64,000 bases of DNA from IMG/VR virus record IMGVR_UViG_3300020469_003958; one strand, written 5' to 3'. The first letter of the stretch is position 1, and the number at the start of each line of letters is the position of its first letter. The position numbers were made by a program, and so were the translations under genes. Below are positions 5,828 through 59,596 of this stretch, piece by piece. Below the pieces are notes generated by a model that made no database searches, had not been told where the DNA came from, and saw nothing but the letters and a program-made list of their open reading frames with translations. Source of the DNA: an uncultured virus (IMG/VR IMGVR_UViG_3300020469_003958) (lineage: Duplodnaviria; Heunggongvirae; Uroviricota; Caudoviricetes).

Positions 5828-5885
5828 CTGATATAGTACTATTTCCTTTGTACTATATAAATATAGAATTTATTACTTTTACCAA

Positions 5886-6290: not shown

Positions 6291-6340
6291 ATGACTATAA
6301 ATTAATTAATTTGTTTTGAATTCGTATATAAATATATAAA

Positions 6341-21864: not shown

Positions 21865-21901
21865 TATAAATATTTGAAAAAATTAATTTAGAATATTTAT
21901 T
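21865..21901. promoter_or_regulatory. Back-to-back late-type promoter motifs for the tail fibre (-) and the RHH gene (+)
   Basis: TATTTATA on - strand at 21865-21872 (25 nt before ATG 21839); TATTTATT on + strand at 21894-21901 (28 nt before ATG 21930). Confidence 0.6.
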
Positions 21902-21929: not shown

Positions 21930-22097
21930 ATGAATAAAAAATATGCAATGTTACAAATTGATGCTGAAGTTCATCAATTATTAAAGTCCTTTTGTAGAGA
22001 TAAAGGATACAAAATGAATGGGTTAGTAGAATCTCTTATAAAAGAAAAAGTATCACCAAAACAAACTCAACCACAAAACATTTTAAGGTCTAGCTAA
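21930..22097 (+). CDS. Small ribbon-helix-helix-like DNA-binding protein (55 aa)
   Basis: Not in ORF track; MNKKYAMLQIDAEVHQLLKSFCRDKGYKMNGLVESLIKEK.. fits a strand-helix-G-helix pattern and fills an otherwise empty gap. Confidence 0.7.
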   Translation: MNKKYAMLQIDAEVHQLLKSFCRDKGYKMNGLVESLIKEKVSPKQTQPQNILRSS

Positions 22098-22922: not shown

Positions 22923-25900
22923 CTAAAATTTAATGTTACTGAATCCATTTACTTTTTTAATTTCCATAAGGGAATCTACCACATCTCTCATTGAATCAAT
23001 ATGTGATATAATCATCACAAAATCAAATTGTGTTTTCAAATATGCAAACAACATATACAATGATGTTAGATTCTCATTATCTAATGTTCCAAACCCTTCA
23101 TCAATTACTAAGAAGTTAGGGCGAGGAAGATTACATACATTGATTAGAGCGATTCTAATGGCTAATCCACTAATGAACCTCTCCATACCACTACACATCT
23201 CTAAACTCCATTTCTGGTCATCATAAACGATGTTAGCGTTAACGTTCTTACCATCCATCTCTAATTGTAATCCAAACTCTACGATTTGACCTAAGATATT
23301 GTTTACTTCACCTTCAATCATTGGTAATGCTTTGGAAATCAGTTCATACGATACACCATCTTTTCCTAAAGCGTTCAGATAATATTCGTACAATCCAAAT
23401 TGTTCTTCTAACTTAGATACTTCATCTATTCTATCTTCGATAGTTTTCTTTTGATTCTTTAAAGAAGATACTGAACCATTTAGTACTAATATATCTGCTT
23501 CACTATTTGATAAGATTTGTTTTGATTTGCCTAACTTATGTCTTACATCAACAATCTCATCTCTAAGTTCTTTATTCTTATTAATTTGTTTTTCATTATC
23601 CAAATAATCCTCAATAAGTTGTGTAACTTGAAGAAGTTCGTTATTTAGTTTGATTTCTTGAGTTTCGAATGTTGATAACTTGTTGATAAGTATGTTAATA
23701 TCTCTACTTACTTTGTTTTCATCTTCTTTAAGTTTATTCAACTTTTTATATTCTAACTCAAATGGAGCTAACTCTTTTCGTTTAGATACCAACTCAGATT
23801 GTTTGTTTTCTAAATCACTTAGTTCTGATTTGATGGTTTCCAATTCACTCTCTACCTTTTCTTTTTGCTCTAAGATAGTTTGTGAGTTCTCCATACAAAT
23901 ATCACAATCTTCATTGTATTTGTGGGAATCCAAATGTTGTTTTCTCTCATTAAAGGATTCACTCTTTATAAGGTGTTTTTCAATATTGTTTTCAACGAGT
24001 GTAAGTTCATATCCCACCTCATTATATTCCGCTAGACCCTCATCAATTTTATCCTCATCAAATGAATCTATTTTTTCTTCTAATTGGATTTGGGTTTCCT
24101 CAAACTCTCCAATCTTAGATTGTATCTTATCTCTTTGAGATAACAATTCGGTTAACGAAGTTTCCGAAGTCGATTTTTTGTTTTGTAATTCTTCTAAAGA
24201 ATAGTTATCGGATTTAACTTTTACAATCTTTTCGTTGAGAGAGATTAATTTCTGATTGTGCTTTTCTACTACTTCTTTAGCAGTAGTTAAACTAACTTCT
24301 TCTAATTTGTATTCAGCTTCTGCTCTCTTTAAATCAATTTGTATATCAGCTAATTGTTGAGTAAAATCATCTCTCTTAAACTTTCGTATTAAGGAAGCGT
24401 TATCTCTATTCTCATTATAAGCATGTGAGTAAAGTTTATCAAAGATATCCACACCCATAAATTGAGCAAGGATTTCTTTTCTCTCACTTTGTGATTTATC
24501 AATGAATAGGGAATTGTTACCTTGAAGTGAAAGTGTAGTTAGTACAAAATCTTCATACGTTCCTAAGTATTGTTGAATGATGGAGTTGGTATCCCTCCGT
24601 TGCTCTCCATTCAAGGAGTGGATACCACCCTCATCCTCTCTCCAAAAGGATACATCTACTTTTAGATTTTTCCCTTTGTTGATTAACTTTGCTCTTCTCT
24701 CAATAAAGTAATCTACATCTTCTATTTGAAAGTGTAATTTACAATAGAAGTTACCCTTTCTATTATTAAGAATGTTCTTTGCTATATAGGTTCTACTTGT
24801 TTTGTCGAATATACAAAAGGATAGTGCATCGAATAAAGATGATTTACCTGAAGCATTAGGAGCGAATATACCTACTATACCATTAGTGTTTTCAAATCTT
24901 ATCTTATTGTTCTCACCATAGGAAAACATATTAGAAAATTCAAATTGCTTAGGAACCCATTGTATATTAGGTGTTACATCATCATCAACCAACTTTGTGT
25001 TGATTTGTCTGTTGATTTGTTTTATCTTATCAATAGTATCATCATCTGCCAAATATTGTCTTTCCAAATAATCTTTAATCAGTTCATTTTGGAATTCAAC
25101 ATCTCTCACATTTCCAATTGCTAACTTATCATCAAAGTTACCAGTCTTTTGTTTAGATAAAGTATCCATTCGAGTAACAGTGAACTCTTGTACTTTATAT
25201 TGTTTTTTAATTTTTGTTAATGCCTTTTTAATCTGAGAAGGGTCAGTATTTGAAACTCTAACTCTTAATCTAGGTTTCTTTGGCATATTAGTAACTGTTG
25301 GAACTACACCATTGTTTACATCTAATGTATAGAAACCATAATCGTTTGGTAAATCAACCTCTTCGAATGTTCTACTTTCAACATCCCATAATAGATAACC
25401 ATGCTTCTCTAATGATTCGCCGTGGTTTTGTTGAATCATAGAACCAGCATATGCAATGGTTGATGAACCTAATGTTTGTCTTTTATGGATATCACCTAAC
25501 ATCACCATATCGAATCCTTCAAACATATCAGTTGTGAAAGAGTTAGATGATACAGTATATCCTATATCAGTTTGTGCTAAATTAACGGGTCCGTGGAATA
25601 AACAAATAGTATTCTCACCTTCTACCACTTCTGCCTTTGGCCAATTCTCTTTGTTATCGAGTATCGAATAAACCACAAAAGTAATGTTATGGAAGGGATA
25701 CACACCAGTATCTTTGAGGTAGTGGATTCTATCATTTTCTAAGTTTTCTACAATTGGAGTGAGTACATCCAATCTATAATTGTTGTTTAAGTTACAATCG
25801 TGATTACCAGTGATTAAGAATGTATGTTTTCTATTTGCACACTCAGTTAAGAACCAACTGATTTCTCTGATTAACTCAGGACTCATTTCAGTTTTTGCAT

Positions 25901-26054
25901 GTGCAATATCACCAGCTAAATAGATAACTGAATTCTCAATGTTATCTTTATCTACGTTGTTTAAGAATTTTTGGAATACTTCTCTATATTCCTTATGTCT
26001 TTTTAGATTACGAATATGTAAATCCGCTAAATGGTAGATTTTTTCTACTATCAT
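22923..26054 (-). CDS. Fused Mre11/SbcD nuclease - Rad50/SbcC ATPase (T4 gp47+gp46-like)
   Basis: DLH, GDIAH, GNHD, GDIH; APNASGKSS, coiled coil with CDIC hook, CSGME, IDEGFGTLD, ISH. Confidence 0.92.
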   Translation of the reverse strand: MIVEKIYHLADLHIRNLKRHKEYREVFQKFLNNVDKDNIENSVIYLAGDIAHAKTEMSPELIREISWFLTECANRKHTFLITGNHDCNLNNNYRLDVLTPIVENLENDRIHYLKDTGVYPFHNITFVVYSILDNKENWPKAEVVEGENTICLFHGPVNLAQTDIGYTVSSNSFTTDMFEGFDMVMLGDIHKRQTLGSSTIAYAGSMIQQNHGESLEKHGYLLWDVESRTFEEVDLPNDYGFYTLDVNNGVVPTVTNMPKKPRLRVRVSNTDPSQIKKALTKIKKQYKVQEFTVTRMDTLSKQKTGNFDDKLAIGNVRDVEFQNELIKDYLERQYLADDDTIDKIKQINRQINTKLVDDDVTPNIQWVPKQFEFSNMFSYGENNKIRFENTNGIVGIFAPNASGKSSLFDALSFCIFDKTSRTYIAKNILNNRKGNFYCKLHFQIEDVDYFIERRAKLINKGKNLKVDVSFWREDEGGIHSLNGEQRRDTNSIIQQYLGTYEDFVLTTLSLQGNNSLFIDKSQSERKEILAQFMGVDIFDKLYSHAYNENRDNASLIRKFKRDDFTQQLADIQIDLKRAEAEYKLEEVSLTTAKEVVEKHNQKLISLNEKIVKVKSDNYSLEELQNKKSTSETSLTELLSQRDKIQSKIGEFEETQIQLEEKIDSFDEDKIDEGLAEYNEVGYELTLVENNIEKHLIKSESFNERKQHLDSHKYNEDCDICMENSQTILEQKEKVESELETIKSELSDLENKQSELVSKRKELAPFELEYKKLNKLKEDENKVSRDINILINKLSTFETQEIKLNNELLQVTQLIEDYLDNEKQINKNKELRDEIVDVRHKLGKSKQILSNSEADILVLNGSVSSLKNQKKTIEDRIDEVSKLEEQFGLYEYYLNALGKDGVSYELISKALPMIEGEVNNILGQIVEFGLQLEMDGKNVNANIVYDDQKWSLEMCSGMERFISGLAIRIALINVCNLPRPNFLVIDEGFGTLDNENLTSLYMLFAYLKTQFDFVMIISHIDSMRDVVDSLMEIKKVNGFSNIKF

Positions 26055-28933: not shown

Positions 28934-28965
28934 ACAGAAATACTTTTATATAAATATTAAGAAAC

Positions 28966-38726: not shown

Positions 38727-39809
38727 TTATGAAATTAAACTAAATGTGTAATCGTTATCAAAGAAATAATCAACTCCACCAATAGTAATCTTAAATTCTA
38801 TATTGTACACCCTATCAACTTCCCAATTAGATAAATTCAAATTGAAATAGTTACCATCGGTATCACAACTTAATTTTGTGTAATTACTAAATGGAATAAT
38901 TGTTTCACCTGAATGATAATCACATATTTGGTAGTATGATGTTGTTGGTAAAAATTTACTAATACCATATTGTGCCGTAGATGAGAATGTTTTTGTAGGA
39001 TATAAATCTCTACCAACTACTCTCAACTTAGGTGTTGTATTTACTTTGTAATGCTTTTTAAAGTTTCTAATTCCAACTTTTATTTCTTCCGATGTTAGTT
39101 CAGTTAACGAACCAGTTGAAAATGATACATCATTCCATGCAATTCTAACTTTTGGTTGGTGAATAGTATTGGTTTCTTTACTAAAGAATTTTAACATACC
39201 ATAATCATTTGAATCTTCCTCAGATGAATTTTCGTGCTTTACTATCAATCCTTCATTTTCAATTGAACCACTTAACCAACTTTGGAAAATTGTAGTTATA
39301 TCTGCGTTTATATCTTCTGTTTTGTATGAGAATACTTGTGAACCACTTAAATTAGAATGCCAAACTCCTCCTCTACCAGCAAACGAGCCAGTTGAGTTAG
39401 TAGCAAATACAATATTACCACCTACTACGTTGTTTACCCATCTAAGTGATGAATCACCTTCTCTATAATTCCAAGTTACACCAGCGGTTTCTATTTCATC
39501 AAATCGAGTACCTTTACCCATTTCCCAACTTTGAGATACTGGATAAATTTCAATATTGAACTCTAAGGGTATTTCTTCAGATTCAGTTTCTCTCATTATA
39601 AGTTTGGCCTCTTCAAACCCTACACTACCAGCTGATAGTGATGATGAGAAGTTCATTACGTCAAATTTAAGGAGTGCTCTGGATACATCTTTGATATTAC
39701 CATAGTAAACCTTACTAACCTCTAATACCTCATCTAAACCAGCGTTTTGGTCAGGTTGTTGTAAGTACACCGATGCATCTTTTGATGCTGTTAAAAAATA
39801 GTATGCCAT
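38727..39809 (-). CDS. Structural protein with DNRLRE/CBM96-like domain
   Basis: ASKDASVY..PDQNAG..LEV..SRALLKFD..W..G..TWN..FSKE..PK. Confidence 0.55.
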   Translation of the reverse strand: MAYYFLTASKDASVYLQQPDQNAGLDEVLEVSKVYYGNIKDVSRALLKFDVMNFSSSLSAGSVGFEEAKLIMRETESEEIPLEFNIEIYPVSQSWEMGKGTRFDEIETAGVTWNYREGDSSLRWVNNVVGGNIVFATNSTGSFAGRGGVWHSNLSGSQVFSYKTEDINADITTIFQSWLSGSIENEGLIVKHENSSEEDSNDYGMLKFFSKETNTIHQPKVRIAWNDVSFSTGSLTELTSEEIKVGIRNFKKHYKVNTTPKLRVVGRDLYPTKTFSSTAQYGISKFLPTTSYYQICDYHSGETIIPFSNYTKLSCDTDGNYFNLNLSNWEVDRVYNIEFKITIGGVDYFFDNDYTFSLIS

Positions 39810-41842
39810 TATCTTGCCCTTCCTTTTATATCCGAATCTGGAAATTTAATTTCGAAAACCGATGGGTCTAAAGATGGATATAAAATCTTATCTTTAATCG
39901 CCGCTTCTATATTGTATGAATTGTTTGCATATTGCCCACCACACTTATTTATAATTTTTAATTTTGGTACTGAACTAACTCCATCAACATTTGCTATAAT
40001 TAATTCTAATTCAGAAATGTTAACTGTGTTATTAAATGTAAAATTATCTATATCAAAATATTCTTTTAGTTCAGATATACAATCAGATAATACTTCACTC
40101 TTATTGTAATTTTTTAATGTAATGATTTCAAACTCAAGTCCTATGTTAATAATAAAACCATCATTTATGTTTATACCATCAGTTAAAATTTTGTATTCTG
40201 AAAGATATGTTTTTAAATTTTCTTTTATTGCTCTATTTAGATTTGATAATTTTTTATTTGAATCATATCCTAATAAATAAAGATTAATAGCAAATGGATT
40301 ATTCTTTTCATTATTATTAGAAGTTTTACCTAATAAGAATTTTTGAAGTTCATCTTTTATTGCTTTTCTATTTGGTTCTTCCTCTTCAGGTTTGTTAACA
40401 AATGATTCTACTAAATCAGTAAACTCATTAAGAACGTTAGGTGAAGCTAATATAGAAGCTGGTGAGTTATTATCCAACTTACCATCTGCCGTAGCGTATG
40501 CTTTTGCAATCGAACCAAATTTGGTTGGCATTGATAGAGCTCTTACTTGATAATCTTTAGCAGTTACTGCTCTATTTTGTGAACCAAAGTTAGCCAAAGC
40601 ATTTTGTCTAATCTCTTCCATTGTATCACCACCCTTACCACCAGTTGCAGGAACCTCATTATCTACTGCGATAGAGTTTTTAGCTGCATTGTATAATCCT
40701 AATTGGGTATCTGAGAATTTTGTTGTATCTTCTTCATACTCTACCCCATTGATTTGAGTAATACTACCTTTCTTTACATTTGATTCTACACCACCACCAA
40801 CTAAATACTTTACAGTTATAGTTGTATTAGATGGAGAGGTTCCATATGTTTTAGTTTTTAAGAAGTTCGTAGGGTCGAAAGATTCTTCTAATTTAGAAAT
40901 AGAATTAGGTAATCCTAATCCAACATTTTTAAATGAAGGAATAATTGTTTCTTCACTAACTGTTGGGTCACCACTACCAAACTGAATAGTTGTTGTACTA
41001 TCTGGATTTACTTGCTTAACAAATCTACGAGATGTTTTAAGTGTATTTAAAATATATGGAGTTGTTTCTTTAAATTGAAATAAATCAGGATCATTATTTT
41101 CAGTATTTGGATAATCAACAAACACCAACTCTTGTGCTAAATAAGGTACTTCATAAAATTTGTTTCCATCCGAATCTCTTACATCGTAAATATCAATAAT
41201 ATTAGTATCACCTAATTCAATACTTTGAAATTCTTTATATGACCCAAAAGTTTCTTCTTCAATTTTTACATCAGCTGAAATAGCTTGTACAAATTTCTTT
41301 ACTAAATAAAAAGTTGCTTCTCCACTAATAGAATCAGTTTGATATATTGTTACTTCTCTATCAGACTCATCTGAAAAATCAACAACATCTTGTGTAACAA
41401 ATTGTACACCATTTGTTGATTCAGCTCTCATACCTTCTTTGATTCTTAAAAAATAAGTTTCATCAAACGTATTATCAGCGCCAGTTCCAATTGATGGAAC
41501 TAATTGATAAACCGAAAGTGTTGTTACTGATGGAGATGTTACTTTTGGTTTGTATCCTAAATATTGTGAAAGTGCTATTACATTTTCAATATCATCGGCA
41601 TGAACCATTAATGATTCTTTTAAAGTATCATCAACATAATATGAAAGTGAATCACCAATATAAGATGCCATTTCAATGAACATCATACCTGGTGATGATT
41701 CATTAAAGTCTGAATATGTTTGTGGGAAATAAGTTTTAGCAAACTCAATAAGATTACCTCTGAATTGTGTAAAATCCTTATTAAGGTACTTTATATCTTT
41801 ACCCTTATTTTTAAAGTTCTTTGATGTTTTTGTTATTGCCAT
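39809..41842 (-). CDS. Baseplate wedge protein (T4 gp6/baseplate J-like)
   Basis: DFNESSPGMMFIEMASYIGD, LGYKP, IQFGSG, ATGG..EEIR..QNRAVTAKDY. Confidence 0.85.
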   Translation of the reverse strand: MAITKTSKNFKNKGKDIKYLNKDFTQFRGNLIEFAKTYFPQTYSDFNESSPGMMFIEMASYIGDSLSYYVDDTLKESLMVHADDIENVIALSQYLGYKPKVTSPSVTTLSVYQLVPSIGTGADNTFDETYFLRIKEGMRAESTNGVQFVTQDVVDFSDESDREVTIYQTDSISGEATFYLVKKFVQAISADVKIEEETFGSYKEFQSIELGDTNIIDIYDVRDSDGNKFYEVPYLAQELVFVDYPNTENNDPDLFQFKETTPYILNTLKTSRRFVKQVNPDSTTTIQFGSGDPTVSEETIIPSFKNVGLGLPNSISKLEESFDPTNFLKTKTYGTSPSNTTITVKYLVGGGVESNVKKGSITQINGVEYEEDTTKFSDTQLGLYNAAKNSIAVDNEVPATGGKGGDTMEEIRQNALANFGSQNRAVTAKDYQVRALSMPTKFGSIAKAYATADGKLDNNSPASILASPNVLNEFTDLVESFVNKPEEEEPNRKAIKDELQKFLLGKTSNNNEKNNPFAINLYLLGYDSNKKLSNLNRAIKENLKTYLSEYKILTDGININDGFIINIGLEFEIITLKNYNKSEVLSDCISELKEYFDIDNFTFNNTVNISELELIIANVDGVSSVPKLKIINKCGGQYANNSYNIEAAIKDKILYPSLDPSVFEIKFPDSDIKGRAR

Positions 41843-41848
41843 ATCTTA

Positions 41849-42277
41849 TTATCCCTGTACTGTAAATGTTAGAGTTTCTAAATTAATATCTTCTCCTATT
41901 CTGAATTTAATTGAAACATTTAATTTATTGTTATCTCTTAATTCATCAGTTGATTCAATATCAATCTCCTCTGCTGTAACATAAGGTAGCCATTGTTCTA
42001 AACTTTCGTTTATAGTATCTTCTATTCTACCTTCTAAATCATCTACGTTTTGTTCAAACAATAATGATTGTAAACCACTACCAAATTGAGGTTGTAAAAT
42101 ACGTTCCCCCTTTTTAGTAAGTAGAAGATTTTTAATATTTGATTTAACTTGGTCTTTGGTTTGGAAAGATTGCTCGAATGTATTCTCACCAAATGTTAAT
42201 GGTAAGGTAATACCAATTGCATAACTTGCAAACTCTTTGGTATCTTTTACAATTCTTCTTCCTAACTCAATTGCCAT
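41849..42277 (-). CDS. Baseplate protein gp25-like
   Basis: NIKNLLLTKKGERILQPQFGSGL..LFE..WLPYV. Confidence 0.88.
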   Translation of the reverse strand: MAIELGRRIVKDTKEFASYAIGITLPLTFGENTFEQSFQTKDQVKSNIKNLLLTKKGERILQPQFGSGLQSLLFEQNVDDLEGRIEDTINESLEQWLPYVTAEEIDIESTDELRDNNKLNVSIKFRIGEDINLETLTFTVQG

Positions 42278-42769: not shown

Positions 42770-42823
42770 TGTATAAAATGTTTTCCTTTCTATATAAATA
42801 TTTGTTTTAGGTTTTTTCGTTTT

Positions 42824-44040: not shown

Positions 44041-45255
44041 CTATTTTAATTGAACATTATTACTTAACATTGTATTTAGTTTACTTTTTAATGTTGTAAA
44101 TTGTGCTACATTAGTTGGACCAGGTGAAGATGGACCAGCTGGTGTTAAGTATATTTGTTGTGCTATTAAATCTATCATCTCACTCAACAATTCAACCAAT
44201 GTTTCACCTTTAGGAGCTGCTTCCAATGTACCATCCGTTCCTAATGCTATTGTACCATTACCAATATCAATATTAAAATCTCTATTTTTAGTATCAACAA
44301 ATATGTGGTCATTGACTGTTAAATTCATTCCTCTATTACTATCTAATGAAAATTGACCATCGGTTATCATACCAATATCACCCTTACTAGCTAAAATCAT
44401 TTGAGATGTTTTTGCTGAAAGGATAATTCTATCAGAATTTAATAATATTTGATTACCCCTTAATTCATTTGGATAATCGAAAAAAGATTCTTTTTTGTTT
44501 TCTACTGGTAGTGTGTATTCTAGTAAAGCGTTTCCTCCACCCAAGAATATAATATTACCATCACCATTAATATCTTCTTCTACCAATACACCATCTTCTT
44601 TCTGCCTATTTTCTGGTGATTCTCCATTTCTTAAAATTAAAGAAGGAGAAAATTCGTTATCAGTATTATTGTACGCACTAAGTCTAATTGATTGTCCAAA
44701 TCTACCTTGAAATAAAGTATCTCCTTCATATAATTTAAGTTTGTGAATACCTTCTTCAATACCAAAGTAATCACCAAAACCATCAAAATCATTTACACTA
44801 TTTGTGTTTGAACGAGTAATCCCAGTACTACTTACTTTAGAATAATTTTTTGATTTATTTCCAGTATCAGTTTCTTGAGTAGCTGGAAATAAACTTGATA
44901 TTAAGTTTTCAGCGTTAGATGTATTTGGTGATAATCCCTTTGAAATCTGAGTATAAATGTATTCACTACCTAACTTTTGAATAAAAACAGTTTGATTTCT
45001 AAGTGGTAGTATGGTAACTGATGAATCTAATGGTCTAGCAAATATTAATTCATTATTCTGAATATCACTTACTAATCTACATTGAATAGAACCAACATCT
45101 GCTATTGTTCTTCTACCCTCTTTTATTTCAGGATGGTTTTCATCTAAAATAACAGAATATACAACAGCTATATCGCTCTGCTTTTCAAATGCATCAGCAA
45201 CAGAAGAAGCTGCTTTAGCTACATTCCATAATAAGTTACCACCAAAAAAACTCAT
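44041..45255 (-). CDS. Baseplate central spike-like protein (gp5/gpV-like)
   Basis: EGD..QGRFGQSIRL, QILLNSDRIIL beta repeats, GETLVELL..TPAGPS. Confidence 0.6.
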   Translation of the reverse strand: MSFFGGNLLWNVAKAASSVADAFEKQSDIAVVYSVILDENHPEIKEGRRTIADVGSIQCRLVSDIQNNELIFARPLDSSVTILPLRNQTVFIQKLGSEYIYTQISKGLSPNTSNAENLISSLFPATQETDTGNKSKNYSKVSSTGITRSNTNSVNDFDGFGDYFGIEEGIHKLKLYEGDTLFQGRFGQSIRLSAYNNTDNEFSPSLILRNGESPENRQKEDGVLVEEDINGDGNIIFLGGGNALLEYTLPVENKKESFFDYPNELRGNQILLNSDRIILSAKTSQMILASKGDIGMITDGQFSLDSNRGMNLTVNDHIFVDTKNRDFNIDIGNGTIALGTDGTLEAAPKGETLVELLSEMIDLIAQQIYLTPAGPSSPGPTNVAQFTTLKSKLNTMLSNNVQLK

Positions 45256-45651
45256 TTAACTTTCTATTTTTTGTTTTACTTCTTCTATTTCATTTTGTAA
45301 ATCATCTACCCTACTAACTTCATCTTGAACTTGTTCAATCTCTGAAAGTAATTGTTCTCTTTCTTTATCAGTAAGGAAACCAGTATCTCCTTCTGATTTT
45401 TGACTTGATGCTATAATTCTTTGTGCGATAGTTGCTAACTTAACCAATTGGTCATCATTACGAACTGATGTATCAATTAAGTCTTTGATGACTGGACCTA
45501 AGATTCCCATATCACCATTGTGTCTTATCATTTTTCTGATTTCAAAGATGACTTCAGAAATATGTTTCTTTTTATTTATTTGATTATTATAGATATCCTC
45601 AAACAACCCACTAAGGTTTTTGCCTGGGAATAATTCGAAATCTGTTGACAT
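45256..45651 (-). CDS. Hypothetical helical protein
   Basis: 131-aa ORF; late motif at 45676-45683. Confidence 0.65.
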   Translation of the reverse strand: MSTDFELFPGKNLSGLFEDIYNNQINKKKHISEVIFEIRKMIRHNGDMGILGPVIKDLIDTSVRNDDQLVKLATIAQRIIASSQKSEGDTGFLTDKEREQLLSEIEQVQDEVSRVDDLQNEIEEVKQKIES

Positions 45652-45706
45652 AGTTTATTGGTATTGCGTTCAATATATAAATATCAATAAACAAAAAAGT
45701 ATAGGA

Positions 45707-45841
45707 TTACCTACCCTGTCCTCTATATGCCTTTTTGTAGTTTCTACTATTTTTAGATTTTGAGGTCTTACACTTAGAGTGAATTCCTGGTCTCTTTTTT
45801 TTAGAAGTTCCAAAACGATTTGATGTAATTACTTTTGCCAT
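45707..45841 (-). CDS. Small basic protein (44 aa) ending YRGQGR
   Basis: Not in ORF track; MAKVITSNRFGTSKKKRPGIHSKCKTSKSKNSRNYKKAYRGQGR; late-type motif at 45861-45868. Confidence 0.7.
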   Translation of the reverse strand: MAKVITSNRFGTSKKKRPGIHSKCKTSKSKNSRNYKKAYRGQGR

Positions 45842-45894
45842 AATATATTTAGATTATACCAATAAGTATATTATACCAACCCAAACAAAAACAA

Positions 45895-46425
45895 TCACTT
45901 ATTCTTATAAAAAAATTCTAATATATCTCTTTCTAAAGTAACATCCATTACGAAGTTGTTACCATACATAATGCTGGTAAAGGTTTCTTCCTCTTCTTCT
46001 GCTATTTCAATAACATAATCTATCTCATCAAATGTTACTTTATAACTTTCACTTTTTTTGATTCTTTGTATGTTCTTATGTTCTGTTGTTCTTTCTATAA
46101 CTTCCTTACCACTTATATCAGGTACATTTAAGAGTTGAGTTACACATTTAGCATAGTTTGTTTTAAGGGTATCTATAAAGAAGATATCATCCATCTTACT
46201 CATTAGATACAATCGTTGTTTTTTATCCAAACCACCCGCTTTAAAATCACCAGTGTATTGTACGATTGGTAAAGATAGTATTGCTTTTTGGGAATCTTCT
46301 TTTAATTTTTTAAAATTTACTTTAGATTTTATTTGATGTGGATGATTAATATCTTTATCACATGGTAGTGCTAAAATATCATAGAATGTATTTGTACCAA
46401 AGTGTTCTTGTATTAGAGGACTCAT
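45895..46425 (-). CDS. Hypothetical protein, last gene of the two-component operon
   Basis: Starts 2 nt after the stop of the previous gene. Confidence 0.65.
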   Translation of the reverse strand: MSPLIQEHFGTNTFYDILALPCDKDINHPHQIKSKVNFKKLKEDSQKAILSLPIVQYTGDFKAGGLDKKQRLYLMSKMDDIFFIDTLKTNYAKCVTQLLNVPDISGKEVIERTTEHKNIQRIKKSESYKVTFDEIDYVIEIAEEEEETFTSIMYGNNFVMDVTLERDILEFFYKNK

Positions 46426-46427
46426 CG

Positions 46428-47000
46428 TTATTCTTTTTCAGTAGCATATTTTACACCCATAATTGTACCAACGATTGAGAATGCGTTAGTAAGGAGAATA
46501 CCAAACATATTACTCCAAGTAGAACCAATGATTTGAGTATCAGTACCAGACATAAGTGCTAATCCATACATAACAGTTGTAAGAACACCAACACCAACAA
46601 TTACATAAAGTGCAACTTTTACAATTGTACTGATTAATTCGAATTGGGTTTTCTTTTGCATTACTTCCAAATCTTCCAATGCCTTATCCTTACCTTTTTC
46701 AGCTTCTTCTCTTAACTGATTGGATTCTTCCAATGCTATTTGGAGTTCTTCCATCAGTTCATCATTTTCTTTTTGTTTATTAACAAGTTCTTTATTTTGT
46801 TGTTGAACTTGTTTAGTTACCTTTAATCTTTTTCTTCTTGATTCGGAATCCTTTTCCTTACAAAGTTTTAGATACTCTTCGAACTCAGTATCACCCTCAG
46901 GCGCTTTAAGAATCTTTAAGAAGTTTCCTTCTATATAAATTCTATTCTTTTTAGCAACACCTAAAAGAACATCTCTTGTATGTTTTGTAACCTCAATCAT
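46428..47000 (-). CDS. Coiled-coil protein with two C-terminal transmembrane helices
   Basis: Q/E/K coiled coil, then VALYVIVGVGVLTTVMYGLAL and MFGILLTNAFSIVGTIMGV. Confidence 0.7.
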   Translation of the reverse strand: MIEVTKHTRDVLLGVAKKNRIYIEGNFLKILKAPEGDTEFEEYLKLCKEKDSESRRKRLKVTKQVQQQNKELVNKQKENDELMEELQIALEESNQLREEAEKGKDKALEDLEVMQKKTQFELISTIVKVALYVIVGVGVLTTVMYGLALMSGTDTQIIGSTWSNMFGILLTNAFSIVGTIMGVKYATEKE

Positions 47001-47006
47001 TATAGG

Positions 47007-47453
47007 TTACTTATAAACTTTGAATGGAGCAGTTTGGTTTAGATATCCATCATAATCTTTTCTGAACTCTTCTAATCGAGGTTCAATATCATCTGATTTA
47101 ATAATCCAAAATTGAGCACCAGCAGCTTTTGCTTTTTCAATTTCTTGATTATCATCTGATGAAGATATAATTCCGATTACACAACCATTACCATATTCGA
47201 AATTGATTTTACGAATCAACTCAATCCCATCAAAGGATGAACCGATTATATTTAAATCAACGAATACACACTCAGGTCTATCATCATCATTGTTATCAGG
47301 AAACCATTCTTTAAATTTTTTATCAGCTTCATCGGAAGAGTTAAGCGCTTCCAAAGATAAAGTGATATCTAAGATACTACAAGCATCTTCAAATACTAAG
47401 TGGAATAAATCCTCATCATCCACCAGTAAGATTGAGTTAATCATTTCATTCAT
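47007..47453 (-). CDS. Stand-alone response regulator receiver (CheY-like)
   Basis: ILLVDDE, CVFVDLNI (phospho-Asp), DGIELIRKI, ISSS, GA..WIIK. Confidence 0.9.
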   Translation of the reverse strand: MNEMINSILLVDDEDLFHLVFEDACSILDITLSLEALNSSDEADKKFKEWFPDNNDDDRPECVFVDLNIIGSSFDGIELIRKINFEYGNGCVIGIISSSDDNQEIEKAKAAGAQFWIIKSDDIEPRLEEFRKDYDGYLNQTAPFKVYK

Positions 47454-48682
47454 TTTAAATTAATTCTTAATTTAGTGCCGTTATTTAATTTTTCGGCTGT
47501 TATTCCAAAACCATGTTCATTCAGAATTGCGATACAAATATTTAATCCCAATCCAGAACCTCCTTCTTTTTGTCCTTCTTTTCTTGTATATGGTTTGGAT
47601 AACTCAATGAACTCTTCATTAGTAATCCCCCTTCCATTATCTTCCACACACATTGTTGAATTATTTTCCATATAAACTCTAATCACCTTTGTACTACTAT
47701 CGTTATACTTTAATCCGTTTCTGATTAAGTTATCTATTGCCGTACAAAATAATGGTTCGTTTACCATTGTGGTTGGTAATCTCTCTATCTTAACTTGTGA
47801 AATGTAAGATGTAGAAGATAAGTAGTTTCTAAGTATCTCAGCAAGATTACACTCATTCATATCTAATTGTGCATCTTCCTTAACTAAGTTTGTAAATTCT
47901 TTTACACCCGAATATACTTTCTGAGTGTGTCTTAATCCCTCCTCTAACATTCGTAGTGGAGAACCTATTTTTAATTCTTTGATTTTTTCTTCTGATAATC
48001 TTCGCTGTAAGGATGATAATCCTCTTGGCATGTATGTGTTGATACCACTATGCATATCATGTCGGAGAATCTTTGCAGCGTGTTCTAAGTAAGAGTTTTT
48101 CTGATTAACTTCTACTTCTGCTAGGTGTTGTAATGTTGTATCGGTTGCTATCTTTAGAACTTTATCGTAACCACCCTTTATACCCTTAATAGGAGTATAG
48201 TTACCAAATAACCAACGAGATGTTCCATCCTTTGCTATTCGTTCAAATTCACCACTTATATTTTCTCCTCTTTTTAATCTCTGCCAAAACTCTCTATATT
48301 CCAAACTTTCTCCATATTGCTTTGGAACCATATTCTTATGTGACTTATGTTTTAATTCCTTTTCGGTAAACTTAAACGTATTACAAAACTTTGAATTTGC
48401 TTCTAATATGTATCCATCCATATCCAACATTACAACTAAGTTTGATTTATCAATTGCTGCTAATTGTAAATCAATATTCTTTTCTTTGAGTTTTGTACTT
48501 TTGATGAAATCATATATGACATAAGAAAATGGTGGTATAAATAGAATTATACAACCATATCCAAATTCGGCTAAAAGATAAGAAGGTTCAAACCATCTAA
48601 ATATAATACAAGTTTGTACTATAAAAAAGATGAATATAATAGAACCCGCTATGCCTAAACATATTTTTGCGAACTTATTCAA
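47450..48682 (-). CDS. Membrane sensor histidine kinase with PAS domain
   Basis: Two N-terminal TMs; PAS (ANSKF..FWQRLKRGE..GEFER..KDG..W..YTPI); LRHDM H-box, NLIRNGLKY, EDNGRGI, GSGLGLNIC. Confidence 0.92.
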   Translation of the reverse strand: MNKFAKICLGIAGSIIFIFFIVQTCIIFRWFEPSYLLAEFGYGCIILFIPPFSYVIYDFIKSTKLKEKNIDLQLAAIDKSNLVVMLDMDGYILEANSKFCNTFKFTEKELKHKSHKNMVPKQYGESLEYREFWQRLKRGENISGEFERIAKDGTSRWLFGNYTPIKGIKGGYDKVLKIATDTTLQHLAEVEVNQKNSYLEHAAKILRHDMHSGINTYMPRGLSSLQRRLSEEKIKELKIGSPLRMLEEGLRHTQKVYSGVKEFTNLVKEDAQLDMNECNLAEILRNYLSSTSYISQVKIERLPTTMVNEPLFCTAIDNLIRNGLKYNDSSTKVIRVYMENNSTMCVEDNGRGITNEEFIELSKPYTRKEGQKEGGSGLGLNICIAILNEHGFGITAEKLNNGTKLRINLK

Positions 48683-48777
48683 TTTATAAAATATCGTTCA
48701 AATTATATTATCGGGGAGATAACTGTTTGAACTTTTTGGGGTGTGAAGTAATGTAACCTATTTAGAATAAATATACA

Positions 48778-49503
48778 CTAATATGAAAAGAACTCATCTT
48801 CATCAGAATCATCCTTTAACTCGCCATAATCTAAGTAATCATTTAACATTTTTTTCTGCTGAACTTTCATTACATTTACAACTTTAGTAATGTAGTGAGT
48901 TTTACAATCTGTCATTTCTCTGATTAAAAGATAGAGATGTTTTTTGTTAAAGTTTTCTATGTATTGACTTCTTCTAAATAATTCTAAGATAGCATCTGCT
49001 ATTTGTATATCTCTCTTTTTTGTGAAAACTTTTGTTAAATTTTTATCCCAATATTCTAACATTAATTCTTTAAATTCAGAAAACTCATTTCCTTTCTCTT
49101 CATCATAGAAGTTATCTGAAGGATTCCAAGTCTCAGGCATTTGAGATAATAAATCAGTTTTCTTATATCGTTTATAGTTTGAGTTATTGGTTAAAATTAA
49201 ATAGTTTTTTGCAACAATAGAAAAATAAGAAAATGCCCTACCTTTATCTTCTTGAAACATATGAATCTTTTGTATCAACATTGCAACAACTTCTTTTTTT
49301 ACATCTTCCTTAGATACATCGAAGTATGAAAACTTAAATGTGTTAAGAATATTTTCTGCTAATTTTTCAAATGGAAATTTAATCCTTTCAGCATATATTT
49401 TATTCTTCTCTTTTGGGTCAGTAGATTTGTTATATTCTATAATTGCTTCTTGAGCTGCTGAACCGAAGTATATTTTGGATTTCTTTTTTCTAGGTCTTGG
49501 CAT
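48778..49503 (-). CDS. Phage sigma factor (gp55-like, sigma70 region 2)
   Basis: YF..AIIEY..FEKLAENI..F.Y..EDV..F..DKGRAFSYFSIVAKN. Confidence 0.65.
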   Translation of the reverse strand: MPRPRKKKSKIYFGSAAQEAIIEYNKSTDPKEKNKIYAERIKFPFEKLAENILNTFKFSYFDVSKEDVKKEVVAMLIQKIHMFQEDKGRAFSYFSIVAKNYLILTNNSNYKRYKKTDLLSQMPETWNPSDNFYDEEKGNEFSEFKELMLEYWDKNLTKVFTKKRDIQIADAILELFRRSQYIENFNKKHLYLLIREMTDCKTHYITKVVNVMKVQQKKMLNDYLDYGELKDDSDEDEFFSY

Positions 49504-49506
49504 ATT

Positions 49507-49779
49507 TTATATGTTATTTTTGTACTTTTCAATAGTATCCTTTAACTCTTTGAAAACTACACCAACTTCATCATCGGATTCGAAAGAACCTCTGATATCA
49601 ATTTCTTTCATATCCTCCAACATTTTTTCTAAAGTAGCAATGGATAATTCATTTAAGTTATCCATATCGTTAGCGATTGTTTCAACCTGTCTAACTAACT
49701 GAGTACCTCTCCAAATAAAAAATATATTTGATATTGTAAGTACTCCTATGATAATGTATAATATGTAGATTAATTCCAT
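49507..49779 (-). CDS. Small membrane protein
   Basis: N-terminal TM helix; FESDDEVG. Confidence 0.6.
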   Translation of the reverse strand: MELIYILYIIIGVLTISNIFFIWRGTQLVRQVETIANDMDNLNELSIATLEKMLEDMKEIDIRGSFESDDEVGVVFKELKDTIEKYKNNI

Positions 49780-49795
49780 TTAGATAATATTTTTA

Positions 49796-49827
49796 CTAAT
49801 ATACGAAAAAATAATTACAAATCCAAA
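49796..49827 (-). promoter_or_regulatory. Bacteroidota-type promoter upstream of the sigma-factor transcription unit
   Basis: TTTG-N20-TATATTAG. Confidence 0.65.
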
Positions 49828-50043
49828 TTATGCTTCACCTTTTTCTCCCCAGTAAGGAAAATCAATAATTTCAATTTCTCTTTCTTCTTTTATTTCTTTG
49901 TTTAAGTTTTTTATTTTTGTTAGAATTTTATTATCCAATTCTATTTGGTCTATCAATTCTTGGTCAATTAATTCATCAACTAAAGCTTCTAATATAATTT
50001 CTAATGTTGATATCTTTTGTTCTAATAAGTAAATTTTATTCAT
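49828..50043 (-). CDS. Hypothetical protein
   Basis: 71-aa ORF in gene run. Confidence 0.55.
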   Translation of the reverse strand: MNKIYLLEQKISTLEIILEALVDELIDQELIDQIELDNKILTKIKNLNKEIKEEREIEIIDFPYWGEKGEA

Positions 50044-50305: not shown

Positions 50306-50881
50306 TTATACCAATTTATATCCTTTATCTAAAAGAGGTTGTGCTTTTTTATATTTAACAAACTCCATTTCTCCTTCTGGTGATTGTAACATCACTCTTT
50401 CATTTCTACCTGGCTTCTTTTCTTTTTTAATTTCTGCACTATATCTTCTGATTGGGGATGTTACATCAATCCCATCAATTGAATCAATTAATCTTTGTGC
50501 AGTAATACATTCAAATAATCCTAAATCATTCATATACTCATCTTGATTTTCCCAATTATCCTTATCAGATGAAAATTCTACAACACCTAAATTATCAGTA
50601 TCTACTTTAAATGATTTATGTCTTGCCGTTTTTCTTGTCTTTTGTTTTACACTATCTTTTTCGAAGTAAACAACCATCTCTTCTGATGTTTCAGTTACTA
50701 TTGGATTTACCAAAGTTAAATCATCATAATCACCTCCAAACTTAATAGTAACTATACGTTTATCTATTCCAACATCAGATGCATTTACAGCATATTCGTT
50801 TTCTAATTTAGATATTCTTTCTTTATATTCATTTAACTCTTCGTTTGTAACAGGAGTTTTTTTAATTATTTTTACTATCAT
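50306..50881 (-). CDS. Degenerate peptide deformylase homologue
   Basis: AVNASDVGIDKRI, LVNP.V, R...V and QRLIDSIDGI follow PDF layout but catalytic motifs are altered. Confidence 0.6.
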   Translation of the reverse strand: MIVKIIKKTPVTNEELNEYKERISKLENEYAVNASDVGIDKRIVTIKFGGDYDDLTLVNPIVTETSEEMVVYFEKDSVKQKTRKTARHKSFKVDTDNLGVVEFSSDKDNWENQDEYMNDLGLFECITAQRLIDSIDGIDVTSPIRRYSAEIKKEKKPGRNERVMLQSPEGEMEFVKYKKAQPLLDKGYKLV

Positions 50882-51038
50882 AGTACTTTTCTATTTCTTT
50901 GGTTAGGTAATCTACTGCCTCTGAACTTCCAATAAATGCTCCGTATTTTGCGTAATACTTAATCCACATATCTCTGTCAGATTCAATTTGTTCTTTTAAT
51001 TGATATCTTTCTGGTAAGTGGGCTTTAATATAACTCAT
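50862..51038 (-). CDS. Hypothetical protein (58 aa)
   Basis: Not in ORF track; MSYIKAHLPERYQ..DSKNN fills the gap and overlaps both neighbours. Confidence 0.55.
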   Translation of the reverse strand: MSYIKAHLPERYQLKEQIESDRDMWIKYYAKYGAFIGSSEAVDYLTKEIEKYYDSKNN

Positions 51039-51423
51039 CTAATAAATCTTCTGGTGTTTCTCTATAAACTCTATAACTATCTTCATCGAAGTGTTCAGTC
51101 GAAACTTCAAATACAATTGAGTTATCTTCCAATGCAATTAATTGATGAGGTAATCCTCTATCAATTAAAACACTATCACCCTTTTCTAAAGTTTTACCTT
51201 CTAACTTTCCATCTTCCACATTCAACCAATTAAATTGGAATCTACCTTCTTGTACATACCAACTTTCTTTTTTCTTAATATGGTAGTGCATTGAGAATCG
51301 GTTTCTATCCTTTGTGAATACTAATAATTTTCCACAATACTCTTCATCGTTGTGAATCCATAGTTCATATCCCCAATTCTTTTCTACTCTCTTAGGAGCT
51401 TTAATATCTACATCTATAATCAT
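51025..51423 (-). CDS. Cupin (sugar-isomerase-like)
   Basis: VEKNWGYELW, SMHYHIKKKESWYV, PHQL..EVST. Confidence 0.75.
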   Translation of the reverse strand: MIIDVDIKAPKRVEKNWGYELWIHNDEEYCGKLLVFTKDRNRFSMHYHIKKKESWYVQEGRFQFNWLNVEDGKLEGKTLEKGDSVLIDRGLPHQLIALEDNSIVFEVSTEHFDEDSYRVYRETPEDLLDELY

Positions 51424-52373
51424 TCTGCGTAACTTTGTGTGTTTAACAATCCACTATATGCACATGCATTAAATTTTCCCATGTGTGGTAGGATAGCAAG
51501 TTCTTTTGCTTTTGCCTCTACCATTACATCAACATCCTCTCCATGTAGGTTTGGTAATTTGTTGATATAATCTGAATGTGCTTGTGGTTTTAATTTATCA
51601 TTCTCTTCATGCAATGCTTTACTTTCAGAGTAATGAACAATGGGTTTAATATTTTTTGGCCAAGTTGAGATTGCTAACCTTAATGCCTCTGCTTCACTCA
51701 ATCCACCTGTATTGAATTTGTGGTGATGATAATCAAATACAATAGGAATACCAATTCTTTCATGTATGTACATCAAATCTTTTACTGAGTACATAGATGC
51801 TTTATCATCGTTCTCAACTGTTAATCTACTTTTTACTGAATCAGATAATCTCTCAAAGTTCTCACAAAATCTATCCATAGCTGATTTCTTATCTCCATAA
51901 ACACCATTACAATGAATGTTGATTTTATTGTAATAAGATTTTTCTAATCCTAACAAATCAAAAATCTTACCATGCATTTCTAAATCAGTAATTGTGTTTT
52001 CTACAACATGCGGTCTTGGTGAAACCAAAACATTAAATGGACCAGGATGTGAAGTGATTCTAATTCCATTTGTTTTTGCGTAATACCCACATGCTTCTAA
52101 TATTGTTTTAATTCTAAGATAATGTGGAGATTTCTCTATTTCATATTCAGAACCCCAAGGAAACATTTCGGAAGATAATCTGAATAGGTTGATTCCATTC
52201 TCATTGTTCCATTCCAAAATCTTATATAAATCTCTAGCGTTTTGTAATCCCAATTCCGTTGCGTATTCAACACCCCTTTCTAAGAATGTTCTTTTAATCA
52301 TTGAACGATTGGTAGTTACTTTTGGTTTTTGACCCGATAGAGTCATATTAATACAAGCGTATCCTAAATTCAT
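51420..52373 (-). CDS. uvsE: UV damage endonuclease
   Basis: LGYACIN, FRLSS, HPGPF, LTVENDD, FDYHHH, HYSES, AHSD, MVEAKAKE. Confidence 0.93.
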   Translation of the reverse strand: MNLGYACINMTLSGQKPKVTTNRSMIKRTFLERGVEYATELGLQNARDLYKILEWNNENGINLFRLSSEMFPWGSEYEIEKSPHYLRIKTILEACGYYAKTNGIRITSHPGPFNVLVSPRPHVVENTITDLEMHGKIFDLLGLEKSYYNKINIHCNGVYGDKKSAMDRFCENFERLSDSVKSRLTVENDDKASMYSVKDLMYIHERIGIPIVFDYHHHKFNTGGLSEAEALRLAISTWPKNIKPIVHYSESKALHEENDKLKPQAHSDYINKLPNLHGEDVDVMVEAKAKELAILPHMGKFNACAYSGLLNTQSYAE

Positions 52374-54052: not shown

Positions 54053-54439
54053 TTAATATTTAATCTTAACTTTTTTTGATTTTCTTTCCTCCTTTTTATC
54101 TAAAAGAATAGTTAGTAAACCATTTTCAATAGATGCTTCAGCTGAAGCTCCATCGTAATCTTTTCCTATTTTAAATCTTAGATTCACATCACTAACTACT
54201 GCATTTACTTTTTCAGCTTCTGCTTTAATTGTAATTACATCCTCAGTAACATCTAATTCCACATTTTTTGGGTTATGCCCTACAACATTGATTAGAAGTT
54301 TTTGTTTATTATCTTCATTTGTAATAGAATACTGCCCCTTTTGGTGATTAATTTGAAGTGGTTTGAATCCTTTTTCAAACACATCATCAAATATGTTGTC
54401 AATTGTATAAATCATATTTTTTATTTTTAAGTTAAACAT
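54053..54439 (-). CDS. Small heat shock protein (Hsp20)
   Basis: VVGH....VELDV..ITIKA..F....D...A.IENGLLTI. Confidence 0.85.
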   Translation of the reverse strand: MFNLKIKNMIYTIDNIFDDVFEKGFKPLQINHQKGQYSITNEDNKQKLLINVVGHNPKNVELDVTEDVITIKAEAEKVNAVVSDVNLRFKIGKDYDGASAEASIENGLLTILLDKKEERKSKKVKIKY

Positions 54440-57333: not shown

Positions 57334-57996
57334 CTATTGATATGCGCTCAATAATCTGAGTAATTCATCCAATGCTTCATGCCTATGATTATCCATTAGA
57401 TTGGTGTAGTAAACAAATTGTGAATCCTTTAATTTAGGAACTTCATGTATTGCTGAATCATTAGCAAACTTTAAATCAATTTGTTGTGGGTCTCCAGTTA
57501 GAATCATTGTGGAACGTTTACCCAATCTACCTAATACCATTCCTAATTGAGATTTGGTTAGGTTTTGAAATTCATCAACTATTACAATAGAGTGTTCAAA
57601 TGTTCTTCCTCTAAAGTGAGATAACGATACTAATTCAATGTGCTCATCCCTTTCCATCTTTTCTAAAATGGCTGGTTTGTTATAAACCTTTCTCATATTA
57701 GAACGAATTGGTACTAACCAAGGCTCCATCTTTTCATCCAAAGAACCAGGTAGAAATCCATTATCTTCATTTGATATGGTTGGTCTTGTTATAACTATCT
57801 TATTTACTTGCCGAGTAAAAAACATATCTAATGCTATTTGTACTGCTAATAACGTTTTTCCAGAACCAGCTTTACCTTGAATAAAATTGTAGGGGTGATA
57901 AAGTATTGCCGTTTTTGCTAACTTTTGTTCATCTGATAAAGATAAGTTAAATTTAATCTTACCTTTGGGTGGAACCTTATTAATGTTCTCTGCCAT
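57334..57996 (-). CDS. phoH: PhoH-family ATPase
   Basis: GKAGSGKT, ITRP, GFLPG, RGRTF, VDEFQN, GDPQQID. Confidence 0.93.
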   Translation of the reverse strand: MAENINKVPPKGKIKFNLSLSDEQKLAKTAILYHPYNFIQGKAGSGKTLLAVQIALDMFFTRQVNKIVITRPTISNEDNGFLPGSLDEKMEPWLVPIRSNMRKVYNKPAILEKMERDEHIELVSLSHFRGRTFEHSIVIVDEFQNLTKSQLGMVLGRLGKRSTMILTGDPQQIDLKFANDSAIHEVPKLKDSQFVYYTNLMDNHRHEALDELLRLLSAYQ

Positions 57997-59556: not shown

Positions 59557-59596
59557 TATAATTCCTTTCTATATAAATATTGGAATTTAAGAAAGA

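Follow-up and report, generated by a model that had tools for sequence, protein, structure and literature searches.

In the life history of a lytic phage the trait that counts most is the timing of lysis, whose known control is either clock-like, through holin accumulation, or responsive to superinfection, as in the lysis inhibition of T4. The T4 system comprises the holin T and the antiholins RI and RIII, and operates through sensing of superinfection via a periplasmic domain and direct protein binding. In Staphylococcus, the two-component system LytSR controls the holin-like and antiholin-like CidAB and LrgAB proteins; this system is cellular, LytS is a 5TM-Lyt sensor, and LytR acts transcriptionally through a LytTR DNA-binding domain. 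LiaFSR exemplifies an intramembrane-sensing kinase with an accessory membrane protein, and sensory rhodopsins are known from haloarchaea, where they act with a transducer and CheA/CheY, and from Anabaena. The present analysis concerns an operon of four minus-strand open reading frames (ORFs; positions 45895-48682) in a 64,000-nt stretch of DNA from an uncultured marine virus, IMG/VR record IMGVR_UViG_3300020469_003958 (Caudoviricetes). This stretch is called the window below.

The first three genes of the operon, which encode a sensor histidine kinase, a stand-alone receiver and a membrane protein of 190 residues termed cc190, constitute a widespread, virus-only unit to which a fourth gene, here u176, is optionally added. 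In the favoured reading, which is given an even chance, the operon is a phage-owned pathway that runs from kinase to receiver to cc190, most likely with signal-gated lysis as its output. The membrane-anchored kinase would read a cytoplasmic signal via its PAS domain, autophosphorylate on H208 and hand the phosphate to D66 of the single-domain receiver, which would then act on the N-terminal domain of cc190. The signal would run along the coiled coil of cc190 to a conserved polar transmembrane (TM) hairpin, the putative effector, which as a holin, an antiholin or a holin regulator would set or gate the time of host lysis. The phage would thereby tie lysis to the energy or redox state of its host. 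The phosphotransfer and the two final steps, the coupling of the receiver to cc190 and the lysis output, we infer from the sequences of the proteins and their relatives.

The operon and its predicted proteins

A preliminary description of this DNA had proposed a tightly coupled four-gene operon, and the ORFs bear this out, with a 4-nt overlap between the kinase and receiver genes and gaps of 6 and 2 nt at the two following junctions (Table 1). The kinase is composed of an N-terminal membrane anchor, a cytoplasmic PAS domain, a predicted dimerization and histidine phosphotransfer (DHp) domain with H208, and a catalytic ATPase domain. It scores above the Pfam cut-offs for PAS_3 (41.4 bits, cut-off 25.6) and HATPase_c (PF02518; 51.8 bits, cut-off 26.4), with additional scores for PAS_9 (36.3 bits) and PAS_4 (34.3 bits), and the PDB histidine kinase 8f71 aligns with residues 192-395, H-box included. 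In an alignment of 20 homologues with a mean column identity of 66%, H208, the N box (N318/N322), the G1 box (D348-G352) and the G2 box (G375-N381) are invariant in all 20 sequences, and the position of H208 in the DHp domain makes it the probable phospho-acceptor. The earlier designation of the protein as a 2TM-PAS kinase thus stands for the PAS domain and the H, N, G1 and G2 boxes but not for the second TM segment: only TM1 is strongly hydrophobic, and the second hydrophobic segment (approximately residues 41-59), in which P50 and F52 are invariant, is weaker. A topology with two TM segments is presumed here from hydropathy and alignment. The two segments are joined by a short loop, and the kinase has no periplasmic sensor domain.

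Variation in the kinase is concentrated in the PAS domain, which is poorly conserved: L134 lacks it and L138 has a replacement. Its best PDB sequence matches are the flavin-type MmoS (3ewk, E 3.5e-11) and Aer (8dik, E 2e-8). In some relatives the receiver is flanked by two kinases. Locus L152 (3923-7507) has a kinase with two PAS domains and a second kinase, and locus L156 (5709-9087) has a kinase with three PAS domains upstream of the receiver and a kinase with the N-terminal half of cc190 downstream.

The receiver just passes the Pfam cut-off for Response_reg, and a profile of 20 homologues matches the receiver structure 3ilh (E 6.6e-5). D12/D13, D66, S97-S99 and K119 are invariant in all 20 and align to the corresponding positions of 3ilh, so that the acidic pocket and the Asp, Ser and Lys residues noticed earlier are indeed present. 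No output domain is recognized by Pfam, in agreement with the proposal of a receiver without a DNA-binding domain, and no NCBIfam equivalog cut-off is reached for the kinase-receiver system. The kinase and the receiver are taken as partners because their genes overlap by 4 nt and because the receiver is fused to the C-terminus of the kinase in three protein clusters, P0271 (574 aa), P0272 (580 aa, on a 190-kb contig) and P0273 (377 aa); the same two features support phosphotransfer from kinase to receiver, though only indirectly.

The receiver is the most conserved protein of the unit. Its mean column identity of 87% exceeds those of the kinase and of cc190 (60%), and it remains 64-73% identical across phages whose GC content ranges from 39% to 67%. 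This conservation, together with the missing output domain, could point to a pair that manipulates host signalling, with the receiver drawing phosphate from host kinases as a decoy or sink, or binding a conserved host machine in the manner of CheY. Such a role appears improbable, since a single shared target is not expected across hosts with GC contents of 30-67%, and the phage's own kinase and cc190 always accompany the receiver gene, with kinase and receiver in some cases forming one polypeptide. No host partner was identified, and nothing was found to support the interception of host signalling suggested in the preliminary description.

The third protein had been described as a coiled-coil protein with two TM segments, which an AlphaFold2 (AF2) model (predicted local distance difference test score, pLDDT, 81) and hydropathy confirm. 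The model consists of a small N-terminal domain, one helix (residues 38-151) leading into TM1, and a second TM segment, TM2, at residues 156-188. Among relatives, alignment indels change the length of the coiled coil, while TM2 is nearly invariant, rich in Ser, Thr, Asn and Gly, and has a face of polar and small residues. No family for cc190 exists in Pfam, PHROG or NCBIfam, the Atlas returned its own viral clusters only, and a profile search retrieved just 245 clusters among 1.84 billion representatives. A predicted complex of the receiver with residues 1-120 of cc190 scored 0.26 against a mark of 0.32, which is evidence neither way. Spanin was considered as an identity for cc190 and rejected by eye, as the protein has two TM segments, both ends in the cytoplasm and no lipobox.

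Of the readings proposed earlier, the membrane output is the one that the domain swaps support best. The coiled coil and TM hairpin of cc190 occur fused to GAF (P0152) or PAS (P0165, P0169), and its N-terminal half occurs fused to HisKA and HATPase_c in P0258, P0259 and P0264 and, weakly, in P0248 (HisKA only, below cut-off). In L156 the gene that joins this N-terminal half to a kinase lies immediately 3' of the receiver gene, the usual place of cc190. Taken together, the swaps and the position in L156 suggest that cc190 comprises an input part, a helix for signalling and an output part; the N-terminal domain would take up the signal of the receiver and the TM hairpin would be the effector. 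One fused form of the hairpin, a protein with two PAS domains (2xPAS-hairpin protein), has 253 confirmed viral loci; a receiver accompanies it in none of 63 distinct variants, and its similarity to the kinase is limited to its own PAS domains.

These fusions also bear on the proposal that cc190 assists the kinase within the membrane, as LiaF does LiaS, aiding the sensing of membrane state, in which case the receiver would act on another phage or host protein. The short loop between the hydrophobic segments of the kinase agrees with such a role, as do the presence of cc190 next to the kinase-receiver pair in nearly all variants and the other small membrane proteins that join the unit (Table 1). 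We consider it rather unlikely, because the hairpin also exists without kinase and receiver, fused to PAS or GAF, because the membrane region of the kinase is far less conserved than TM2 of cc190, and because a second kinase, located behind the receiver, uses the N-terminal half of cc190 as its own N-terminal module.

The fourth protein, u176, is predicted to be soluble with a mixed alpha/beta fold (AF2, pLDDT 80). No match for this fold was obtained with Foldseek against the PDB at E<=0.001, the best VIA-align Z of 5.0 is noise, and the Atlas scores are below 0.8. The distribution of u176 among homologous loci marks it as an optional accessory gene.

Distribution of the three-gene unit

Relatives of the kinase were confirmed in at least 635 instances in viral contigs and relatives of the receiver in 309. 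Grouping of the loci by receiver DNA gave 93 distinct variants, 45 of them fully flanked. The kinase and cc190 are each present in 92 of the 93, and the order kinase, receiver, cc190 is retained in all 45 fully flanked variants, which come from viral contigs, while the flanks differ, ranging over ribonucleotide reductase, tail fibres, the gp23 capsid gene and glycosyltransferases. The kinase-receiver pair is thus a genuine phage-resident one, as had been claimed, and the unit behaves as a colinear cassette with optional members.

One optional member, a protein of 62-66 aa with two TM segments encoded 5' of the kinase (L041:5781-5966, L027:5770-5967), has a conserved C-terminal Cys-Pro motif. 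It is found in close relatives of the window (84% kinase identity) yet is absent at 48683-48777 of the window and from its nearest relatives.

A comparison of phage and bacterial genomes had been put forward as a check on the unit. A pattern scan of one genome per species, covering 185,579 species, retrieved six true loci, all on contigs of metagenome-assembled genomes (MAGs) with a GC content of 39-67% and labels from five phyla, and no cellular genome context for the module. In four of the six, the flanking ORFs belong to phage families (T4-type topoisomerase II, virion protein, baseplate wedge, or phage-only families with strong matches); the flanking ORFs of loci L154 and L156 have no PHROG match. 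The kinase-receiver pair is kept in all six MAG loci, four of which encode a full cc190 and one, L156, the kinase-fused form; L154 ends at the receiver. Of 8000 scored candidates in a large protein database, 5037 reached E<=1e-5; among the 120 matches listed, identities were 75-99% and the sole meaningful name was "PAS domain S-box-containing protein".

Megablast of window positions 45000-50000 against cultured phages gave no match, the receiver and cc190 had no match in 50,697 GenBank phage records, and tblastn with the kinase gave two partial matches of less than 35% identity, both to uncultured fragments. In Flavobacterium phage immuto, the homologue of the 241-aa gene that lies upstream of the operon in the window directly precedes baseplate-module genes and the cassette is absent; because this syntenic site lacks it, the cassette is interpreted as an insertion into a conserved backbone. 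Mel-JY01, another cultured relative, also lacks the cassette. Searches of the open full-text literature and of the main text of PMC7824862, PMC12619734 and PMC9123017 gave no description of a phage module of kinase, receiver and membrane protein, or of a phage rhodopsin within one.

Three trivial origins were also weighed, namely recent capture of host DNA, chimeric assembly, and non-functional cargo in decay. The nearest record, an identical 102-kb fragment (G001, estimated to be 51% complete), ends within cc190 at window position 46895, and an independent DNA run, X9, shows many loose ends in the operon region. In X9, however, two contigs with zero differences and a 30-nt overlap jointly cover positions 44500-49667 at even depth, and position 46895 is bridged at a depth of about 46-48; nearly all sampled words of the stretch also occur in 14 DNA runs from 10 studies, some of which may be the source sample. 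The GC content of the operon (0.30-0.31) equals that of its flanks. Between the window and its relatives, the ratio of nonsynonymous to synonymous substitution rates (dN/dS) is 0.09-0.20 over all four genes (0.12-0.13 for the kinase and 0.15-0.20 for u176), with synonymous sites near saturation. With hundreds of phage loci besides, these data contradict a host-fragment or chimeric origin, the probability of which is negligible.

Independent assemblies tend to break within the cassette, at the end of G001 and, in X9, at a contig boundary (47088-47117), and X9 contains many partly fitting contigs, which suggests strain-level variation in this region. In a 187-kb cassette-bearing genome, one phage protein (L134:9944-11917) combines a Cohesin domain with a C-terminal sorting domain for type IX secretion, which hints at a Bacteroidota host for that phage.

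Linkage to lysis genes and the proposed output of the pathway

Evidence for the output comes from the neighbourhoods of the hairpin. A holin or endolysin homologue lies within about 2.6 kb in 27 of 42 fully flanked variants of the 2xPAS-hairpin gene, and Pfam searches of six of the 15 blank variants recovered GH19 endolysins in two more, which brings the count to at least 29 of 42. The adjacent genes encode endolysins of the PG_binding_1+GH19, Phage_lysozyme and Peptidase_M15_3 types and a Phage_holin_4_1 holin. The three-gene unit has lysis genes in the flanks of 20 of its 45 variants, upstream or downstream and in at least eight arrangements, the endolysins being of the Amidase_2, M15 or GH19 type. 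Holins and their regulators are usually recognizable in genomes by steady linkage to endolysins whose type changes. Lysis control is favoured as the output because the linkage to lysis genes persists while the type of endolysin changes, and because the polar, glycine-rich TM helix of cc190 fits a pore-lining or holin-binding role. A link of cc190 to lysis is therefore presumed from its relatives; the gene neighbourhood in the window phage gives it no support.

Several observations weigh against a signal-gated lysis pathway. No holin or endolysin homologue was found in the window or in G001, the cassette of the window clade does not lie beside lysis genes, and in the complete 252.6-kb relative G002 of the same clade the sole Amidase_2 match is about 120 kb from the cassette. 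Among the fully flanked three-gene variants, 25 of 45 have no recognised lysis gene nearby, and the variants are interrelated, so that the linkage counts do not represent independent events. No match between cc190 and holin families was found in Pfam (E<=1) or PHROGs (E<=0.1). At the signalling end, the Response_reg (PF00072) score of the receiver is marginal (31.0 bits against a cut-off of 30.2), the window kinase has no Pfam HisKA match at E<=0.01, and the kinase-receiver fusions may owe their existence to single-base read-through where the two genes overlap by 4 nt. Transcription of the operon is weakly indicated by contigs of three RNA libraries from two studies, which match portions of each of the four genes at 95-99% identity but could also stem from contaminating DNA; the flanks 44500-45788 and 48916-50000 have no cover in these libraries, which was not used as evidence.

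The weight of the individual negatives differs. The missing holin-family match lowers the case for cc190 as a known holin and leaves a function in lysis control untouched. Searches with the PF05105 holin against G001 and with the holin protein of locus L019 against G002-G004 gave no match, and such blanks are uninformative; Peptidase_M15_3 had no match in G002-G004. A Bac_rhodopsin search of G001 was blank as well, and equally uninformative because its control gave no signal.

On a broader and more tentative view, which we hold to be possible but doubtful, the cc190 hairpin would represent a new, virus-only class of lysis effectors, a "sensor-gated holin or antiholin" governed directly by fused PAS or GAF domains, by the kinase-receiver relay as in the window or, in a few phages, with the help of a sensory-type rhodopsin in the cassette, through which aquatic T4-like and jumbo phages time lysis by host energy, redox state or light. 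If so, a phosphorelay or a one-component PAS/GAF protein feeding a membrane effector would be a new viral way to read host physiology, and a module abundant in marine and aquatic viromes could shape burst timing, diel lysis patterns and carbon release. Even without a lysis output, there remains a signalling module of three genes, conserved and confined to viruses, whose effector belongs to a new family and which offers a testable model of signal transduction owned by a virus.

Surroundings of the operon and comparison with known systems

All sizeable ORFs of the window lie on the minus strand, and its GC content is about 0.30. A T4-type large terminase, gp25-like and wedge baseplate proteins and a primase mark the source as a T4-like phage, and further genes encode a fused SbcD/SbcC-like nuclease, PhoH, Hsp20 and a dCMP deaminase. 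By the baseplate wedge protein, the closest cultured phages are Microcystis phage Mel-JY01 (42% identity) and immuto (39%). No tRNAs were found in the window. The features of the locus are collected in Table 1.

Table 1. Position of the operon, its parts, its neighbours and the optional cassette genes (window coordinates unless a locus is named; counts out of 45 refer to fully flanked variants, those out of 20 to aligned homologues)
Feature	Position	Strand	Basis or occurrence
Sensor histidine kinase, 410 aa, TTG start	47450-48682	-	ORF, Pfam PAS_3 + HATPase_c, 8f71 alignment
Kinase membrane region, residues 7-60	48503-48664	-	Hydropathy, alignment
PAS sensor domain, residues 82-185	48128-48439	-	Pfam, PDB matches, alignment
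H208 codon, predicted phospho-accepting histidine	48059-48061	-	Invariant 20/20
Catalytic ATP-binding domain with N, G1, G2 boxes, residues 312-409	47456-47749	-	HATPase_c, box residues
Stand-alone receiver, 148 aa	47007-47453	-	Response_reg match, 3ilh alignment
D66 codon, predicted phospho-accepting aspartate	47256-47258	-	Invariant 20/20, aligned to 3ilh acceptor
cc190, coiled coil + TM hairpin, 190 aa	46428-47000	-	AF2 model, hydropathy
cc190 N-terminal domain, residues 1-45, proposed input/docking	46866-47000	-	AF2, fusions
cc190 coiled coil/signalling helix, residues 46-118	46647-46865	-	AF2, alignment
cc190 TM hairpin, residues 119-188, proposed effector	46437-46646	-	Alignment, AF2, hydropathy, fusions
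u176, optional fourth gene, 176 aa	45895-46425	-	ORF, homologous loci; 17/45
Upstream intergenic region	48683-48777	-	Consensus matches only
241-aa upstream neighbour	48778-49503	-	Backbone gene common to immuto, Mel-JY01, LR756508
gp25-like baseplate gene	41849-42277	-	3' of operon
Baseplate wedge protein	39809-41842	-	3' of operon
Optional 62-aa 2TM protein	Directly upstream of kinase		20/45
Optional ~165-aa TM + coiled-coil protein			9/45
Optional rhodopsin	L059:7547-8122, L068:8165-8743 (also L066/L101/L104, L071/L160)		2/45

The operon had been placed between a phage sigma factor and baseplate genes. The baseplate genes are confirmed, while the sigma factor identity of the 241-aa upstream neighbour is not backed by a family match: Pfam, PHROG, NCBIfam and PDB sequence searches gave nothing for the protein, and its homologues in immuto, Mel-JY01 and an uncultured 484-kb phage are annotated as hypothetical. 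Since RssB- and PhyR-type receivers control sigma factors, the receiver might bind this protein, if it is a gp55-like late sigma factor, and so regulate phage transcription. The cassette lies directly downstream of the 241-aa gene in the window clade (8/45 variants), and the receiver resembles RssB weakly (E 0.0047, far below cut-off). A profile of eight sequences of the 241-aa protein, compared with T4 gp55 by hhalign, gave a weak and insignificant colinear resemblance (residues 10-88 against 9-91; probability 1.7%, E 0.029). Against this, the two are neighbours in one clade only, where the cassette was inserted into a backbone that is conserved, and the obligate cc190 would be left unexplained, which renders the proposal very improbable.

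The region between the 241-aa gene and the kinase had been credited with a phage late-type motif. At 48766-48773 the motif TATTTATT (gene orientation) is one mismatch away from TATTTATA, the reverse complement of the T4 late-promoter octamer; its distance of 91 nt 5' of the kinase start codon departs from the usual spacing, as TATTTATA (gene orientation) recurs 11-45 nt 5' of many start codons of the window (for example at 5856-5863, 21865-21872, 28949-28956, 42793-42800, 45676-45683 and 59572-59579). This recurrence makes TATTTATA a candidate phage promoter element. The motif TATAAATA was found 18 times in the whole window against 16.5 expected and is not over-represented. A sigma-70-like match, TTCAAA-18-TATAAT at 48731-48702, lies closer to the start codon and is a consensus match only, and a search for terminator-like sites between 45000 and 50500 yielded none on the coding strand.

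Further features of the window were noted in passing. Just 3' of the operon, at 45707-45841 and 45845-45885, lies a very basic ORF of 44 aa preceded by two tandem TGGTATAAT extended -10-like sequences; the ORF has no family match. A single ORF of 3357 aa (11766-21839) has weak Intein_splicing (below cut-off) and CBM_5_12 matches and no other annotation. The 1043-aa protein at 22923-26054 joins a Metallophos (SbcD/gp47-like) part to an SMC/AAA_23 (SbcC/gp46-like) part, which are two genes in T4. A sugar or lipopolysaccharide-type gene cluster (1060-10792 and 22090-22920) encodes cytidylyltransferases, a PfkB kinase, a heptosyltransferase-like GT9 protein, a GT1+methyltransferase+GT25 fusion and a UDP-glucose dehydrogenase fragment. 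Auxiliary genes for a peptide deformylase-like protein, a cupin, the UV endonuclease UvdE, Hsp20 and PhoH stand amid backbone genes (50306-52373, 54053-54439, 57334-57996).

Four related phage contigs, one of them a 297-kb genome estimated to be 99% complete, carry a microbial rhodopsin of 192-193 aa with seven TM segments (7TM) inside the cassette. It matches Bac_rhodopsin in Pfam (E 4e-12 to 4e-14), and its closest solved relatives are proteorhodopsin and the viral rhodopsin OLPVRII (E ~1e-8). The helix-C Asp/Thr and the context of the helix-G Schiff-base Lys are retained, and a Gln is aligned to the helix-C Glu of proteorhodopsin, a position which we take to be that of the proton donor; because of these residues, the protein is suggested to be a sensor rather than a pump. 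As far as the open full-text literature shows, a rhodopsin in a kinase-receiver cassette would be an undescribed case, and, on the tentative view given above, its wiring into the cassette would give light-timed lysis.

In comparison with described systems, the phage proteins share with classical two-component systems (EnvZ/CpxA/PhoR-type cores; CheY, Spo0F) the predicted DHp histidine, the N, G1 and G2 boxes, the receiver pocket and translational coupling. They differ from these in being found on phage contigs only, in having no DNA-binding output and in the obligate third gene of a virus-only family. The rhodopsin-bearing relatives resemble sensory rhodopsin systems in that a 7TM rhodopsin stands in a kinase-receiver cassette beside small TM and coiled-coil proteins; unlike those systems, the cassette has neither a HAMP domain nor a methyl-accepting chemotaxis protein (MCP) transducer, its kinase is not CheA, and the window itself is without a rhodopsin. 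With LiaFSR the operon has in common the minimal external loop of the kinase and a co-encoded small membrane protein, whereas the TM module of cc190 also exists free of the kinase, fused to sensors of its own.

T4 lysis inhibition offers a parallel within the T4-like phages, as a signal input to a membrane lysis protein delays or triggers lysis. No sequence relation to that system was found, and sensing in the cassette and its relatives would be cytoplasmic (PAS/GAF), in the window via the proposed phosphorelay. The likeness to LytSR lies in the coupling of a two-component system to small membrane proteins that govern access of murein hydrolases and lysis; in the phage version, the receiver is without a DNA-binding domain, the sensor is a PAS kinase and the system is viral.

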